A stretch of 64,000 nt of DNA, taken from assembly GCA_038212275.1 (NCBI GenBank), contig JBBQUR010000001.1, positions 96,001 to 160,000 on the forward strand, given 5' to 3'. Numbering within the stretch: the stretch's first letter is position 1; the number at the start of each line of letters is the position of its first letter. The stretch is from Planctomycetota bacterium. GTDB lineage: Bacteria; Planctomycetota; B15-G4. The position numbers were made by a program. Below are positions 36,001 through 45,000 of this stretch, piece after piece.

Positions 36001-39000
36001 GCCTGCCAGGCGCGCTGCACATCGTCCAGCTCCTCGCCGAAGGAAGCCTGCCACGCGATCCGGTGCAGCATCGGCGGCTCCTTGCCGGAGGCTTCCGGCG
36101 TCGCATCATAGGCCAGCAGGTAAGCCCCCAATTCGTCGGCGTGCTGCTCCATCAGGAAACGCAGCACGCTCCAGCTCACGCCGATCTCCATGCTGTCGAG
36201 ATCTTCCACCGGCTGCGACATGAGCGGCGCCAGTCGGCCCGCCTGGGCGGCGAGAGTCGGCCGCATCAGGTTCTCGTGCCAGTGGATGAAGTCTTCCCAG
36301 CCCTTCACGAAGGGGTCGATCGCCTCGTTGTCGGCGTTGCGCGCGAAGCTGGTGATCGTGATCGTGGCGTGCTGTGTGACCGCTCCTTCATAGAAGGCAG
36401 CCAGTCCGGCTTCGAACCAGCCAGGAGTCCGCGCGCCACCCTTGAGGCGCTGCAGCAGCACGTGCGCGAGCTGGTGCGTGACGGATCCGAGCCTGCCGAG
36501 ATCCTCGTCGCCGGCCAGCTCGAAGTTTTCGCCGTGGGCCACCAGGCCGATGAGCGGTCTCGGCCAGTAGAGCGTGAATCCGCGCGAGGCGCGGAAGCGC
36601 TCGCGGAAGGAGTTGCTCGCCCCGTAGCCGACGAGGATGTCGCTGTCCATCAGCCGTCCCACGGCGTCCAGGTCCGGAAGCGCGATCACCGGAATGTCGT
36701 AGCGCAGCAGCGATTTCATCCCGGCTTCGTCAGGCGTGAAGCGCAGCAACAGGTCCTTCACCACCAGGTCGAGGTTGTAGACCAAGGCCTCGGCAGCGTC
36801 CGTGTTCAGCTCCGAGAAAAGCGTCACGTAGGTGCCGGAGGTGGCCGTGAGCGGGATGTCGATCGCCGCCATGTCCTCCAGCAGGAGCGTCGTCTCGCCG
36901 GGGCGCCGCGCGATCCACTCGTCGTGCACCCGGATGAAGCCACGCTGCCGCATGACCTGCGCCTCGGGCTGCCAACCGCCGTCCTCCCAGAGCAGGCCGG
37001 CGGCACGCTGCTCCGCTTCGTGCTGCTTGACGTACTCCTCGACTTCCGCCGGATCGAGCCAGCGGTCGCCCACCTTCACGCGGCCGAGCGACTCGTTGGC
37101 GAGACTGTGGTCAGGGACGAGCGCGATCACCTCGCGGAGCAGCGCCCGTGAGTCGGCCACCAGGCCATTGTCGCGTGCCCAGAGCGCCAGTTCGAAGAGC
37201 GCTGCCGCATCGCCCGCCGGCACGTCCGCGCGCCGCGCCGCAAACTCCTGCGCGGCGGTGCGCTTCTCTTCGATCCGCGCCACCTTGCTGAGCGGTACCA
37301 CGACCTTGCCGAATTCGGTCGTCACGGTGATGTCGGTGGCCGTGCGCGCGCTGATCGTGCCCTCCAGCGTGCGGCCGTCCTTGTAGTGGATGACATCGGC
37401 GCGCGCGAGACACGACAGCAGCACGACAACGGTCAGCACTCGGATGGCGAGGATCGGCGTGATGCGCATCGGGTTTCCTGGGGCGGTATCTTGGGGCGCG
37501 TGGAACGTGACGTCAAACCGCTGCGAGTGGCCGGCTACGAACTGGGCGAGACGCTGGCCCAGGGTGCGGGCGGCACCGTCTTCATGGCACGCGATCGCCA
37601 CGGGCGCAGCGTCGTCTGGAAGCGTCACGAAGCCGGAGCAGGAGAGACAAGTGGCCTTGCCGAGGCGCAACTGCTCGGACTGAGGCACGCGGGGCTCGCT
37701 GCCTGTCTCGATGCCGGGCGCATTGCGGGTGACGGTCGCCTGTACACCGTGACCGAGCATGTGCTCGGCGCCGCCTTCGGTCCTGACGCTCTGGACCCGA
37801 CACCGGTGCCGGCCGAACGCGCACTCGCGCTGTGCGTCCGGCTGCTTTCCGCTCTGGCGACCGTGCACGAGCGCGGCCTGCTGCATCGTGACCTCAAGGA
37901 CGACAACGTGCGTCTCGAGGCCGCGACGGACAGGCCTGTGATTCTGGATTTCGGTCTGGCGTGCCTCGCCGCCGAGAGCGCACGACTGCCGGCCGCAGGC
38001 ACGCCGCGCGCCATGGCGCCCGAGCTTTTTGCCGGCGCGCCCGCCTCCGTCGCTTCCGATCTCTGGGCCGCAGGACTGCTCCTGGCCGAAGCGCTGCTGG
38101 GACGGCGCCTTTCACGTGCGACGGAACCCGAAGCGCTGCTCGCCGAACGCTCGGCCTGGTCCGGTTTTTCGGACGACGACTCCCGGCGTATCGGCGAGCC
38201 CGCGCTCGTGGCGCTGCTGGGGCGACTGCTGGATCCGCATCCCGAGCGCCGACCGCAGGACTGTCGTGCCGCACTGGCAGCCCTGCCGCAGCTCCCTGCG
38301 GCGCTTGCAGCGGAGCTGGCGCGCGAGCACCTCGATGGCCGCCTGTCGGGCGCGCTGGTCGCGCAGGACGAGTCGCGGCACGCGAGACTGGCCGCTCTCG
38401 CGCGCCGCGAGTCGTGGGTGGCCGCCTTTCCCACGCCGGACTCGACGCTGATCGATGCCGTGCAGACGGTCATCGCGCTGATGCGCGATGCCGCTGGCTC
38501 GTCGCCCGGACTGGATGCGCGGCTGGCGCGCGCCGCGGCGCTGGATGCACCCGGTGTCACGGATCTGTGCGGACTGATCGAGGCACTCGCCTCGCTCGCG
38601 CCGCTGACCCTCGAAATGGGCCTCTGCCGCGCGACTGCAGAGTCGCTGCAGGCCCGGCGCGAGGTCGCGAAGAAACTCGAGGTCGTGCCCGCCGTGCACG
38701 TCTTCGATGAGCCCGCGCTGACCAGCGACGGCGCGATCGATGCACTGCGCGCAGCCTTCGGGATGCATGCGGTGCTCGAACATCGCATGCGTGCCGCGCC
38801 TCCTCCCACGCGCGAGGCCCTCGCCCAGGCGCTCGGCGCACTGCTCCGTTCGGGCGTCGTCGGCACGTGGGCGGGCACGCTCGTCGTCACGGAGACGCGA
38901 CTCCCTCCAGGCTGGCCCGCGCAGGCTGTCAGCGCGCTGCCCGCAGACCTGAGCCAGCACGCGCGCACCGTGCTGGCTTTGCTCTGCCTGTCGCCTCGGG

Positions 39001-42000: not shown

Positions 42001-45000
42001 CGCTCTTCCTGGACGAAATCGGCGACATGAGCGATGGCGTCCAGAAGCGCCTGCTGCGGGTGCTCCAGTCCGGGGAATTTCTCGCCGTGGGCGGACGCGA
42101 TGTGCGCAAGGTGGATGTCCGCGTCCTCTGCGCCACGCACCGCGACCTGAAAGTGCTCGTCGCCGAGCGGGAGTTCCGCGAGGACCTCTATTTCCGGCTG
42201 GCTGTGGTGAAGGTCCAGCTGCCGCCCCTGCGCGAGCGGAGCGAGGACATTCCGCTGCTGCTGGGGCACCTGCTGCAGCGCCACGGCGGGGGAACCCGCA
42301 CGATCGAACCGGAGGCCCAGGCTCTGCTCGCGGCACAGCCGTGGCCCGGCAACGTGCGGGAACTCGAGAATTTCTCGCGCAATCTCCTGCTGTTCGATCG
42401 GGAGGGCACGCGAGTCGGTGCGGCGCTGGTGCGGCGGCTGCTGTCGGGCGGCGGCGTCGATCCGATTCCGGCTGCGGTGGCCGCTCCCGGAGACGCCTCG
42501 CTGCCGATCCGGAGCCGGCTGGAAGCCTTCGAGAGAAGTCTTGTCGAGGAAGCGCTGGCGAAGTCCGGCGGCAACAAGGCCCAGGCCGCGCGGGAACTCG
42601 GCGTCGGCATCCGCACGCTCTACAAGATGCTGGAACGGCTCGGCTTCCAGGCGGCCGCTCCCGGCCGCAGCGGGGAGACGCCGCCGGGCGGCTCCTGATC
42701 CGCGTCAGGATGGACTATACTTCGACCGCAGGTAGCTCACCCCGACTCTCAGCCCCCTGCCGCGTGTTGCTCCCCGCCTCTCCCCGCAGGTCTCACCTCC
42801 CATGATGTTCCCGCGCACCAGAGCTCCGCGTCGCGCGTTTGCCTGCGTGGCCTTGCTGTGCATGGCAATTCCCGCAGCGGCCTACCTCCAGCGTGTCTCG
42901 ACCTACTTCGGCGCGAGCTTCAACGTGTCGAGTGCGCCGGGTTCGAACCTGCTCCCCGCGGAAGTCGGGCAGTTCAGCGTGACCTCCGTGCCGTCCGAGT
43001 TCTCCGTGGCTCCGGGCAAGGGGGGGGGCGAACTCAAGATCGACGACAACGGCACAACCGTTGCCGCGACTCTCGAAGCGCTTTTCAAGAAAACGTTCGC
43101 CGGTCCTGAACTCAACGTCGAGTGGACGGTCCGGGCGTCCCAGATCGATGCGCGCCTCGTCGTGTCGGTGCAGGACGCGGGTGATACGGGCCTCATCGAC
43201 TGCGGCATGGATGACGACGGCTCCGTGGACGTGGACGGCCTCGACACCGGCTTCGTCTACCAGCCGGATGTGGACTACGAGATGCACTTGAACCTCAAGG
43301 CACCGCTGCTCGGATCCGGCAAGTGGACGCTCGACATCGAGTCCGGCGACCAGCTCGTGTCCCACTCGAGCGGGCCGTTCAATCCGCCTTTCAACTTCAA
43401 GGCCAAGTCGCTGACCATCACCCGTCCGCCCAACGATCACGCCGGCAAGTTCCACGTCGACGACATCCTCGTCTGGGCCTACCTGCCGAACGCCGCGTCG
43501 TTCTGACGACGATCCTGCGATGCGGGTGTTGATCACGGCGGGTGGAACGCGTGAGGCGATCGACTCGGCGCGCGTGATCGCCAACACGAGCACGGGACGT
43601 CTCGGGGCCGTGCTGGCCGAGACCGCCGCTGCTGCGGGCCACGACGTCGTGGTGCTGGCCGGCTTTCACGCGGCCAGACCGCGGGGCGTGCGCTGCGTCA
43701 CCTTCGACAGTTCGGCGGATCTCGCGCGGCTGCTGCGGGAACACGTTCCGCTTGCGGAGATCGTCATTCACGCGGCCGCGGTGTCGGACTACGTGCCCGT
43801 GAAGGCGCCGGGCAAGCTCTCGTCGGATGCGCCCGAGCTCGTGCTGCGCCTGACGCGGGCGCCCAAGCTCATCGACGGCCTGCGCAACCTGCTGCCCTCG
43901 GGACTGCTCGTGGGCTTCAAGCTCACCGCAGGCCTCGCGGAGGCGCAGCAGGTCGACGTGGCGGAGGCGCTGCGGTTGCGGGCGCGGCTCGACCTCGTCG
44001 TGGTCAACGACGCGGGGGCGACCGGCGAGGACGACCACGTCGCGCTTTTCGTGCACGGGGGCGCCGTGCACGCGCGCTGTCGTGGCAAGGCCGATATCGC
44101 GCGCCAGCTGGTCGAGTGGATGGTGGTGCCCGCCGGCCGCCACGCGCTCGGGCCGGAAGGCTCGTCGGCATGCGGGGCGGAGGGCACGTGAACGTCCTGC
44201 TCGGAGTCACCGGCGGCATTGCGGTTTACAAGGCCTGCGAATTGGTGCGGCGGCTGCGCGACGGCGGGCATGAGGTTCAGGTCGTCATGACCGATGCCGC
44301 CACGCGCTTCGTGACGCCGCTCACCTTCGAGACGCTGTCGGGGCGCGCCGTCGCCACGTCGCTCTGGGGCGGGGCCGACCCGTCCATCGAGCACATCCGA
44401 CTGGCGCGCTGGCCCGACGTGATCGCCATCGCGCCCGCCACTGCCAACACCATCGGGCGTCTGGCGCACGGTCTGGCCGACGACCTGCTCACGACGGTCG
44501 TGCTCGCCTCGCTGCCGGCCGTGCCGGTGGTGATCGCCCCGGCGATGAACACCGCCATGTGGGACAACCCGCTCGTGCAGCGGAATCTCGCCGTCCTCGC
44601 GGACGTGGACGGAGGGCGCCGCTACCGCTTCGTGGCGCCTGCCGAGAAGCAGCTCGCGTGCGGCGAGATCGGCGTGGGAGCACTGGCCCACGAGGCGGAG
44701 ATCCTCGCGGCCATCGCAGTGTCAGTGCTGCCGGAGCGCTGAAGAACACGGCGTTTTCCGCGCTGCTCAAGCTGAGGCTGGGCGATGTCGACAGGAGGGC
44801 CGCGCCGACGCGAGGGGTCGGTGCGAGCATCTCTCCTGACGTGCGATCGGGCCGCCCTCGAAGAAGCAGCAACCAGGAAGCATCACCCAGTGTCCACGGC
44901 CTGATCGCACCTTGAGGGAGCGCGCGTCGAAAAAGTGCGCTGACGGAGACGGGAGATCCTCGGCCACGATCGCTACGATGTCGGCGCCGGTGGAGATGGT

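Follow-up and report, generated by a model that had tools for sequence, protein, structure and literature searches.

A planctomycetal Ser/Thr kinase joined to a STAND-derived TPR sensor and a GAF-type sigma-54 activator

The gene and its domains

The window, a stretch of 64,000 nucleotides from a Planctomycetota bacterium (contig JBBQUR010000001.1, positions 96,001 to 160,000), contains a gene that is translated without a stop over 1,732 residues from a GTG start, which bears out the single open frame given in the genome-wide survey's note (Table 1). The database copy of the protein has 1,735 aa and starts 3 codons upstream, the frame is open upstream to 37386, and a divergent ORF on the reverse strand apparently begins at 37469, before the gene. 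Its GC3 of 0.84 is coding-type. No membrane segment was found in a transmembrane scan (highest Kyte-Doolittle mean over 19 residues, 1.59), and the product is a signalling protein of STAND-like layout, soluble and located in the cytoplasm. The domains listed in the survey's note (Pkinase, TPR_12, GAF, Sigma54_activat, AAA_lid_14, and HTH_8) were reproduced by our Pfam search. Of the four parts described there, the kinase, the TPR repeats, the GAF domain, and the bacterial enhancer-binding protein (bEBP) all hold, but a fifth part, a P-loop-less NOD of STAND type, had been overlooked. Its presence places the protein among the relatives of PknK, MalT, and AfsR and makes it more than a simple kinase-plus-bEBP.

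Table 1. Position of the gene and of its parts in the window
Feature	Position	Strand	Residues	Remarks
Whole gene (kinase / degenerate NOD / TPR / GAF / sigma-54 AAA+ / HTH_8)	37500..42698	+	1,732 aa + stop	One open frame
Hanks-type Ser/Thr kinase domain	37536..38258	+	13-253	Pfam Pkinase 1.8e-21
STAND-type NOD fold without P-loop	38367..39161	+	~290-554	NBD-like alpha/beta part, helical domain, winged helix (479-554)
His/Ala-rich low-complexity insert	39231..39371	+	~578-624	Specific to the source genome
TPR superhelix, presumed sensor	39567..41084	+	690-1195	~25 paired helices, ~12 repeats
GAF domain	41115..41525	+	1206-1342	Pfam GAF 1.6e-18, GAF_2 4.9e-18
Charged, helix-prone GAF/AAA+ linker	41535..41711	+	1346-1404	Read from sequence
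Sigma-54 interaction AAA+ and lid	41718..42407	+	1407-1636	Walker A 1434-1441, GAFTGA 1481-1486, Walker B DE 1505-1506
Fis-type HTH_8 DNA-binding domain	42519..42635	+	1674-1712	Pfam HTH_8 2e-11

The N-terminal kinase domain reaches 77.2 bits in Pfam against a cut-off of 31.7 and aligns with chains of PknB and Aurora (about 1e-14). It carries K41, E55, the catalytic loop HRDLKDDN (129-136), DFG (150-152), GT (167-168), and APE (173-175). The catalytic residues, which the survey had left unchecked, are intact and are each kept in 108 to 115 of 115 family members (K41 in 112, E55 in 108, N136 in 111, and D131, D150, and E175 in all 115), and the GT motif of the activation loop is retained in 20 of 21 sequences. 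From these conserved residues the kinase is predicted to be catalytically active.

The middle region, for which only TPR matches had been noted, indeed contains a TPR solenoid, but this is preceded by the NOD. The latter comprises an NBD, a helical domain, and a winged helix and lies ahead of a repeat sensor; its fold matches MalT (8bob) and the STAND-TPR protein 6mfv. Neither a Walker A (GxxGxGK[ST]) nor a Walker B motif for NTP binding was found in it. At the aligned position the P-loop is absent from the protein and from its 34 closest relatives, the strand-to-helix loop at the expected place reads AFPTPDST, and AAA_16 gave no Pfam match in the protein. A canonical Walker A is present at this position in only 17 of the 115 family members, and 48 have a form with K changed to R or with the S/T lost; since relatives contain these canonical and partial motifs, the NOD module is STAND-derived. 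It has kept the NBD-HD-winged-helix fold and lost the nucleotide-binding loop. Since the NOD of this clade has neither Walker A nor Walker B, it cannot follow the classic STAND scheme of ATP-driven oligomerisation unchanged. The His/Ala-rich insert that follows is missing from all 18 aligned relatives, and its residues 601-618 have a pLDDT below 50. The predicted model of the TPR region is all-helical (pLDDT 91.8, pTM 0.86) and matches the TPR of OGT (1.7e-8), LGN (1.5e-7), and APC/C subunits in Foldseek, and TPR_12 is found in three stretches, one of them at aa 886-945. This solenoid is presumed to be the sensor.

In the C-terminal module, Sigma54_activat at aa 1407-1572 covers positions 2-167 of the 168 of the profile (PF00158, 1.9e-66, 223 bits against a cut-off of 20.2), and AAA_lid_14 follows at aa 1578-1636 (3.4e-14). 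Walker A (GESGTGKE), GAFTGA, and the DE of Walker B do not vary among the 19 aligned sequences, except for T1438 (at least 90%). The charge and helix propensity of the linker between GAF and AAA+ suggest a coiled coil. Among solved chains the module matches NifA (9qq6_C, 1.2e-75) and ZraR (1ojl, 3.8e-70), and NCBIfam returns nifA (TIGR01817, aa 1191-1636, 1.2e-97), ntrC (TIGR01818, aa 1396-1630, 1.3e-94), and NorR (1.9e-96). The 540 C-terminal residues have the same order of GAF, GAFTGA-bearing sigma-54 AAA+, and HTH_8 as the GAF-type bEBPs NifA, NorR, and FhlA, whereas the protein has about 1,190 additional N-terminal residues with kinase, NOD, and TPR. As all equivalog scores of the module fall under their NCBIfam cut-offs, the protein is none of these three; for NifA, TIGR01817 gives 327.9 bits against 528.85, and no nif genes were noticed among the neighbours of the gene. 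The assignments as an NtrC-type response regulator (no Response_reg match in Pfam at E up to 0.01) and as an FHA-type bEBP (no FHA match in Pfam) were likewise rejected. With high probability, the output is that of a sigma-54-dependent activator.

Conservation and distribution

Relatives keep the fusion in a single ORF. When the order-level loci were re-fetched whole, the kinase catalytic loop and GAFTGA lay in one stop-to-stop frame of 1,664-1,818 aa in 12/12 cases, and tblastn gave one HSP of 1,701-1,757 residues in each of the seven same-family genomes. The stops reported earlier inside matches of relatives are thus not internal. The gene stands in conserved synteny in all seven family genomes, which indicates vertical inheritance. 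Identity within the family is 79% for GAF, 73% for the GAF/AAA+ linker, 72% for AAA+, 53% for the kinase, and 30% for the NOD, so that purifying selection bears most heavily on AAA+ and on GAF, the most conserved part, less on the kinase, and least on the NOD. The assembly is at draft stage (40 contigs, 91% complete), and so long a frame could in principle stem from an assembly error, from two genes read through into each other, or from a pseudogene that is nonfunctional as a whole. Such an artefact or decay is highly improbable, as it is already contradicted by the synteny, by the same single frame in the order-level loci and in 8/8 more distant loci fetched whole, and by 1,732 codons without a stop, with coding-type GC3 and preserved catalytic motifs. 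That this is one real gene with the domains given here can be taken as nearly certain.

The proposal that such fusions form a new class of bEBP is too strong. Among the database relatives listed, 114 of 119 are full-length look-alikes, ten Atlas clusters of 57-131 members share the size and domains of the protein, and NCBI and JGI names were already given automatically, with several relatives called “PknK” by JGI. As in the survey, no published study of kinase-bEBP fusions was found in the literature searched, in which some likely sources were not covered. The kinase/NOD/TPR/GAF/bEBP layout is common in public metagenomes and has apparently escaped study.

Paralogue and sigma-54 system of the genome

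The paralogue with the same layout noted by the survey exists (C2:92800-97953, reverse strand) with 1,713 aa and the same domain order, but its kinase match covers the C-lobe only (Pkinase 119-235, 1.8e-12). The N-lobe is undetectable with Pfam, and DFG reads DLD. Judging from this degraded sequence, kinase activity may be dispensable in some family members. The rpoN gene reported for the genome was confirmed at C6:64149-64646 (PF04552, 1.1e-53). Eight true bEBPs are encoded, two of which are the kinase fusions, and none of the eight has an FHA domain; FHA proteins that are not bEBPs are encoded at C1:209646-210317 and C5:186900-187088. The surroundings of the gene yielded no sigma-54 promoter or enhancer: TGGCAC-N5-TTGC with up to 1 mismatch has 4 matches in the window versus 4.3 expected, and across 8 syntenic loci there is no positionally conserved sigma-54 site.

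Relatives with FHA domain

All ten scanned nearest relatives that lack the kinase have the order FHA-GAF-Sigma54_activat-HTH_8 and align to aa ~1155-1732 with 46-50% identity. In a tree of the bEBP core, built by a quick search that left 22 of 51 inner branches unresolved, these FHA-type relatives are interspersed with the kinase fusions. The FHA domain in all ten relatives and this intermixing tie the bEBP clade to phospho-threonine signalling, and the sequences hence give independent support to a probable link with Ser/Thr phospho-signalling in kinase-fused and FHA forms alike. The FHA-domain bEBPs are the nearest sequence relatives of the module and share the coupling of a sigma-54 activator to such signalling; however, they have a phospho-threonine reader, whereas the protein described here has a writer, the kinase, together with NOD and TPR. 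FHA-domain enhancer-binding proteins were reportedly described for Myxococcus xanthus by Jelsbak et al. in 2005.

Comparison with known systems

With MalT, AfsR, and PknK the protein shares the order of (effector), NOD (NBD-HD-WHD), repeat sensor, and (effector), but a sigma-54 AAA+ activator takes the place of a LuxR or SARP DNA-binding domain as output, and unlike in STAND regulators the NOD of its clade, which is without Walker A or B, cannot be an ATP switch. It is a PknK/MalT/AfsR-style STAND-derived sensor with a NifA-like GAF-bEBP as C-terminal output. In AfsR, a STAND transcription factor, sites in the NOD and TPR are phosphorylated by the Hanks kinase AfsK (PMC10936776), which is the same logic in trans, whereas here kinase and transcription factor are in one chain. 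NtrC-type response regulators share the sigma-54 AAA+ core, HTH_8, and a control of the bEBP linked to phosphorylation, as proposed here; in contrast to them, the protein has no receiver domain or partner histidine kinase, and its phosphorylation would be on Ser/Thr instead of Asp.

Possible mode of action

The best explanation, to which we give a probability of roughly 50%, is a STAND-derived TPR/GAF sensor in which phosphorylation by the kinase belongs to the switch by which the bEBP is licensed. A signal, be it a protein, a peptide, or a small ligand, would be received by the TPR solenoid, the GAF domain, or both and would alter the self-association of the NOD/TPR scaffold, with the NOD of this clade acting as a scaffold and not as an ATP switch. 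Kinase domains would thereby meet and trans-autophosphorylate, and the AAA+ domain held by GAF would be freed, so that its hexamer could remodel the sigma-54 holoenzyme at enhancer-dependent promoters. With phosphorylation as part of the licensing switch, a separate histidine kinase or receiver domain would be unnecessary. Repression of the AAA+ domain by the GAF domain is described for NorR (PMC2941729). For AfsR, the study reports more oligomers and stronger DNA binding of a phosphomimetic form and also little effect of phosphorylation on in vitro activation, which counts against a phospho-switch (PMC10936776). That kinase activity controls the bEBP output in the same protein or oligomer has, in our view, a little less than an even chance, and the kinase may plausibly gate the bEBP directly.

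In its simplest form such gating would act in cis: the kinase would modify a defined Ser/Thr in GAF, linker, or AAA+ of the same chain, and this alone would turn the ATPase on or off, in the manner of aspartyl phosphorylation in NtrC, with NOD and TPR as mere spacers. The intact kinase residues and the fusion kept as one ORF agree with this, as do several S/T columns of GAF and AAA+ conserved in 20-21 of 21 sequences and the phospho-threonine relevance for the clade that is implied by the FHA-type relatives. However, about 900 well-folded and conserved residues of NOD and TPR separate kinase and GAF, which disfavours a spacer role, and no phosphosite can be assigned, a phospho-acceptor having been identified nowhere in the 1,732 aa. 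The S/T columns conserved in 13/13 order-level sequences belong to the kinase activation segment, to GAF, and to the AAA+ core, and fold or catalysis alone would account for them. Known fold and catalytic positions such as T1484 of GAFTGA are among the conserved S/T residues. We therefore regard gating by a single modification in cis as unlikely. It is also doubtful that TPR and GAF inputs drive kinase and bEBP as two independent effectors without mutual regulation, the kinase acting on other proteins, e.g., FHA proteins, and the bEBP activating transcription. STAND proteins, MalT and the kinase PknK included, can bear effector domains at either end (PMC4381067), FHA proteins other than bEBPs are encoded in the genome, and in the paralogue the bEBP module is retained beside a seemingly degraded kinase; yet the exchange of kinase and FHA before the same bEBP module suggests that phospho-signalling feeds into the bEBP, and nearly all 115 members retain the kinase catalytic residues.

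Taking kinase fusions and FHA forms together, we propose, with well under even odds, a clade of sigma-54 activators that is run by Ser/Thr phosphorylation and not by two-component phosphotransfer. If this is true, the input was swapped in evolution between an FHA reader and a kinase on a STAND-derived TPR scaffold, whose signal-driven self-association in the fused form would trigger trans-autophosphorylation of the kinase and thereby license assembly of the bEBP hexamer. FHA-bEBPs would possibly be recruited into mixed rings where both types coexist, and a kinase fusion and an FHA-bEBP do coexist in one relative genome (G144). With the decay of the NTPase switch in the lineage of the window, phosphorylation would then have taken over the role of ATP exchange.

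Gene model, domain map and conservation of the reading frame

The single frame that the genome-wide survey's note had described for the kinase-bEBP protein P0001 (bEBP, sigma-54 enhancer-binding protein) was recovered in full; it begins with GTG at position 37500, upstream of which the frame stays open to 37386. Since the divergent neighboring ORF apparently starts at 37469 and the alignments of the relatives begin at residues 3–30, P0001 starts at 37500 or no more than a few codons away from it; its copy in the database has 1,735 residues. The domain order reported before was reproduced by Pfam almost number for number (see table), and the genome does contain rpoN, which lies on contig 6. 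In addition, aa ~1380–1715 match the solved chains of NifA, ZraR, NtrC1 and FleQ (1e-75 to 1e-62), and aa 11–256 match PknB and Aurora kinases (about 1e-14). By every sequence test available P0001 is a bEBP as well as a Hanks kinase, and no sequence feature that sigma-54 activation requires is missing from the predicted bEBP module. NCBIfam places NifA at aa 1191–1636 and NtrC at aa 1396–1630, both far below the equivalog cut-offs, and membership of either family was rejected. The same holds for a reading as membrane receptor kinase, as no hydrophobic or membrane segment was found.

Coordinates of P0001, its domains, its neighbors and related ORFs (G000, the genome of the window)
Feature	Position	Strand	Located on	Source or remark
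Kinase-bEBP gene	37500–42698	+	window	1,732 codons
Pkinase	aa 13–253		P0001	Pfam
His/Ala-rich insert	aa ~578–624 (window ~39231–39371)		P0001	low complexity
TPR_12	aa 886–945		P0001	Pfam
GAF	aa 1206–1342		P0001	Pfam
Sigma54_activat	aa 1407–1572		P0001	Pfam
AAA_lid_14	aa 1578–1636		P0001	Pfam
HTH_8	aa 1674–1712		P0001	Pfam
982-aa ORF	28293–31241	+	window	no Pfam match
508-aa ORF	35943–37469	-	window	no Pfam match
234-aa ORF	42802–43506	+	window	no Pfam match
CoaB-like	43520–44191	+	window	DFP
CoaC-like	44116–44742	+	window	Flavoprotein
Paralogue	G000:C2:92800-97953	-	contig C2	1,713 aa; equals fetched locus L057:104-5242
Two-FHA-domain ORF	G000:C1:209646-210317	-	contig C1, outside the window	frame of at most 401 aa

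The survey's note had also reported stops inside the matches of relatives. Twenty relatives were re-fetched with sufficient flank for a frame check, and in all of them the sigma-54 contact loop GAFTGA lies within one stop-to-stop frame of 1,590–2,363 aa; in 12 loci of the order (seven of the window's family, five of a second family) frames of 1,664–1,818 aa also hold the kinase catalytic loop. Furthermore, tblastn returned a single HSP of 1,701–1,757 residues in 7/7 family genomes. Because whole frames and single HSPs were recovered, the stops cannot be regarded as internal. Across the phylum, 301 sampled genomes were searched with a strict first look, and full-length look-alikes turned up in each of the seven other family genomes; for the second family whole frames were verified in five of six genomes, the sixth being cut by a contig end, and for the two genomes of a third family there was no look-alike among the matches listed. 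About 19 further entries among the matches listed belong to other families and lie in frames of 1,590–2,363 aa; eight of these entries were fetched and confirmed. A pattern search of genome contigs yielded generic bEBPs from many phyla, including 26 loci >4 kb, mostly proteobacterial. None of the 26 has the kinase loop and GAFTGA in one frame, the longest frames being 457–989 aa, and they are therefore not fusions.

The gene has conserved surroundings. Upstream, the order is pseudouridine synthase, PMI-like, RsmD-like, VWA, the 508-aa ORF and the kinase-bEBP gene, with the upstream genes other than the 508-aa ORF each present in four to six of the seven family genomes; downstream follow the 234-aa ORF, CoaB, CoaC, release factor and purH, the last four in 7/7. 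This conserved synteny indicates that the kinase-bEBP gene is an old, vertically inherited gene of the lineage. Most of these neighbors (RsmD-like, VWA, CoaB, CoaC, release factor, purH) have housekeeping functions. The divergent 508-aa ORF, which has a signal-peptide-like N-terminus and lies 30 bp from the GTG of the kinase-bEBP gene, is found beside the orthologue in three of seven relatives and could be a regulated neighbor; no sigma-54 site was seen by it. The 234-aa ORF directly downstream is present in 4/7 relatives. The CoaB-like and CoaC-like proteins are encoded by separate overlapping ORFs, in this order in 7/7 family relatives, the usual arrangement being a fused CoaBC. The 982-aa ORF has a C-terminal half that is 39–43% identical in 5/7 family relatives.

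An intact kinase, a STAND-derived NOD and a TPR superhelix

The catalytic residues of the kinase, which had been left unchecked, were followed through an alignment of the N-terminal 700 residues of 115 members, i.e., P0001 and those 114 of the 119 database relatives listed that exceed 1,500 aa. They are conserved: the HxD aspartate, the DFG aspartate and the APE glutamate are each present in 115/115, the VAIK lysine in 112, the catalytic asparagine in 111 and the alpha-C glutamate in 108, and the GT of the activation segment occurs in 20/21 sequences. This residue pattern is that of a putatively active kinase under selection.

The middle of the protein, for which only TPR matches had been noted, does form a TPR superhelix at aa 690–1195, but it also contains a STAND-derived NOD (aa ~290–554) from which the P-loop is absent. 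The model of aa 690–1195 (pLDDT 91.8, pTM 0.86) has about 25 paired helices and matches generic TPR superhelices such as those of OGT, LGN and APC/C. Regarding the NOD, the P-loop is canonical in 17 of the 115 members; in 48 (GxxGxGR[ST]-type; among database relatives P0046–P0121) arginine stands in place of the Walker A lysine or the next Ser/Thr is lost, and in 15 the loop is degenerate in other ways. The remaining 35, which lack the P-loop, are the clade of the window. A graded series of predicted STAND P-loops, from canonical to absent, thus runs across the family, and a functional STAND NTPase was rejected for P0001, as the P-loop is absent in its clade. Conservation to the family orthologues is 79% for GAF, 72% for AAA+, 53% for the kinase, 47% for TPR and lowest, 30%, for the NOD, as would be expected of a scaffold whose nucleotide binding has been lost. 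The His/Ala-rich insert between NOD and TPR is predicted to be disordered; it occurs only in the copy of the window's genome and is absent from 18 aligned relatives.

In the general STAND scheme a NOD is combined with a repeat sensor and with effectors at either end, bacterial examples being MalT and the kinase PknK (PMC4381067). P0001 likewise combines a NOD and a repeat sensor with an effector at both ends, and is a STAND-derived multidomain sensor like PknK, MalT and AfsR, in which the kinase is N-terminal and the C-terminal part is a complete bEBP of the GAF type.

The paralogue and the FHA-bearing relatives

The second copy on contig C2 exists with the same domain order, as had been claimed. 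The two copies are 35% identical over aa 642–1717, and this low identity, together with a long branch of the paralogue far from the window's clade, argues for an old divergence; a recent duplication was rejected. In the paralogue only the C-lobe of the kinase was detected, in which HRDIKAAN is kept and DFG reads DLD, and the N-lobe with the glycine loop and the VAIK lysine cannot be aligned. Hence its kinase looks partly decayed, and the protein could represent the same architecture with a pseudokinase.

Elsewhere in the phylum, the best of the listed matches to aa ~1180–1730 that lack a kinase have 46–50% identity and are closer to P0001 than its own paralogue. Ten of 15 such frames listed were scanned, and 10/10 have the order FHA-GAF-Sigma54_activat-HTH_8. 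In a maximum-likelihood tree computed quickly from 55 rows of the bEBP core, P0001 falls into a well-supported clade of nine fusions, the sister of which is formed by the five of the second family (14 rows, support 99), and this clade lies inside an all-fusion group of 18 rows (support 93). Elsewhere on the tree kinase fusions are mixed with FHA forms. The fusion label changes seven times on the tree as drawn; well-supported branches force only one change, and a single origin of the fusion is therefore compatible with the tree. FHA domains read phospho-threonine, and FHA-bearing EBPs were reportedly described from Myxococcus by Jelsbak et al. in 2005. The same activator module thus appears wired to Ser/Thr phospho-signaling in both forms, by a reader (FHA) or by a writer (kinase). 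The FHA-bearing relatives are the best available support for the core idea of the survey's note. Its observation stands and is extended, and its interpretation is supported in part. Both types coexist in other genomes, e.g., at loci L021 and L049 of genome G144. The window's genome has eight true bEBPs, none with FHA and two of them kinase fusions. One of its only two FHA proteins is encoded by the two-FHA-domain ORF, a candidate partner of Hanks kinases.

Possible mechanism and alternatives

The analysis shows the domain identities, the intact catalytic and sigma-54 contact motifs, the lost P-loop and the conserved fusion. For the path from input to ring, we infer that a signal would arrive at the TPR and/or the GAF domain and alter the self-association of the NOD-TPR scaffold, upon which the kinase domains would trans-autophosphorylate and the AAA+ domains would be released to form an active ring. 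Three precedents support such a mechanism. The GAF domain of NorR represses the AAA+ domain (PMC2941729), and MalT undergoes inducer-driven multimerization (PMC4381067). AfsK phosphorylates conserved sites in the NOD and TPR of AfsR, and phosphomimetic AfsR oligomerizes to a greater extent and shows stronger DNA binding, with activation in vitro little changed (PMC10936776). Counting against it are the partly decayed kinase of the paralogue, the lack of a phospho-acceptor site found in P0001 and the lack of a target promoter. The scan of the window for TGGCAC-N5-TTGC gave four matches with 4.3 expected, which is chance level; no positionally conserved -24/-12 site was seen in the window region and seven syntenic loci (eight in all), and the neighbors of both copies give no hint of a target.

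Three other explanations have to be weighed against this scaffold-mediated activation. The kinase and the bEBP might be two independent outputs under one sensor, which we consider somewhat unlikely. That the kinase gates the activator directly in cis, by way of a single site within the bEBP module, is doubtful. An artefact is extremely improbable, the fusion being conserved as one frame among the re-fetched relatives.

Relation to known activators and significance

Among bacterial transcription systems, only that of sigma-54 depends on an ATP-driven activator, and reviews sort these activators by their regulatory domain, i.e., receiver, GAF, PAS and others. Architectures of the present kind may be mentioned in papers on the myxobacterial kinome and on the Sorangium genome. 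A survey of 2011 found about 43% receiver-type, about 12% PAS and 10% GAF activators, and makes no mention of kinases (PMC3162934). The kinase-bEBP fusion is undescribed in the literature searched, including passages of PMC2877116, PMC11032199, PMC7159879, PMC12316311, PMC7910581, PMC8538405, PMC3162934 and PMC8436480. In public data the relatives carry automatic names, "sigma 54-interacting transcriptional regulator" at NCBI and "transcriptional regulator with GAF, ATPase, and Fis domain" or "PknK" at JGI; by source name, close relatives are Planctomycetota and those further away Myxococcales or Deltaproteobacteria. In the ESM Atlas, ten clusters with 57–131 members each (1,402–2,032 aa) show the same domains. 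The fusion is a combination of known kinds, kinase and bEBP, that is abundant and automatically named in public data.

The finding is limited in that the organism is uncultured, the proteins are already public under automatic names and no target genes were found. The alternation of kinase and FHA and the graded STAND decay are testable and of specialist interest, and the family offers a natural series for studying the decay of STAND switches. If many conserved activators are joined to an intact kinase of eukaryotic type, Ser/Thr phosphorylation would gain a further path to sigma-54, the case for which is strengthened by the FHA-bearing sister forms. Such kinases abound in Planctomycetota and Myxococcota-type genomes, and there this path may be prominent.
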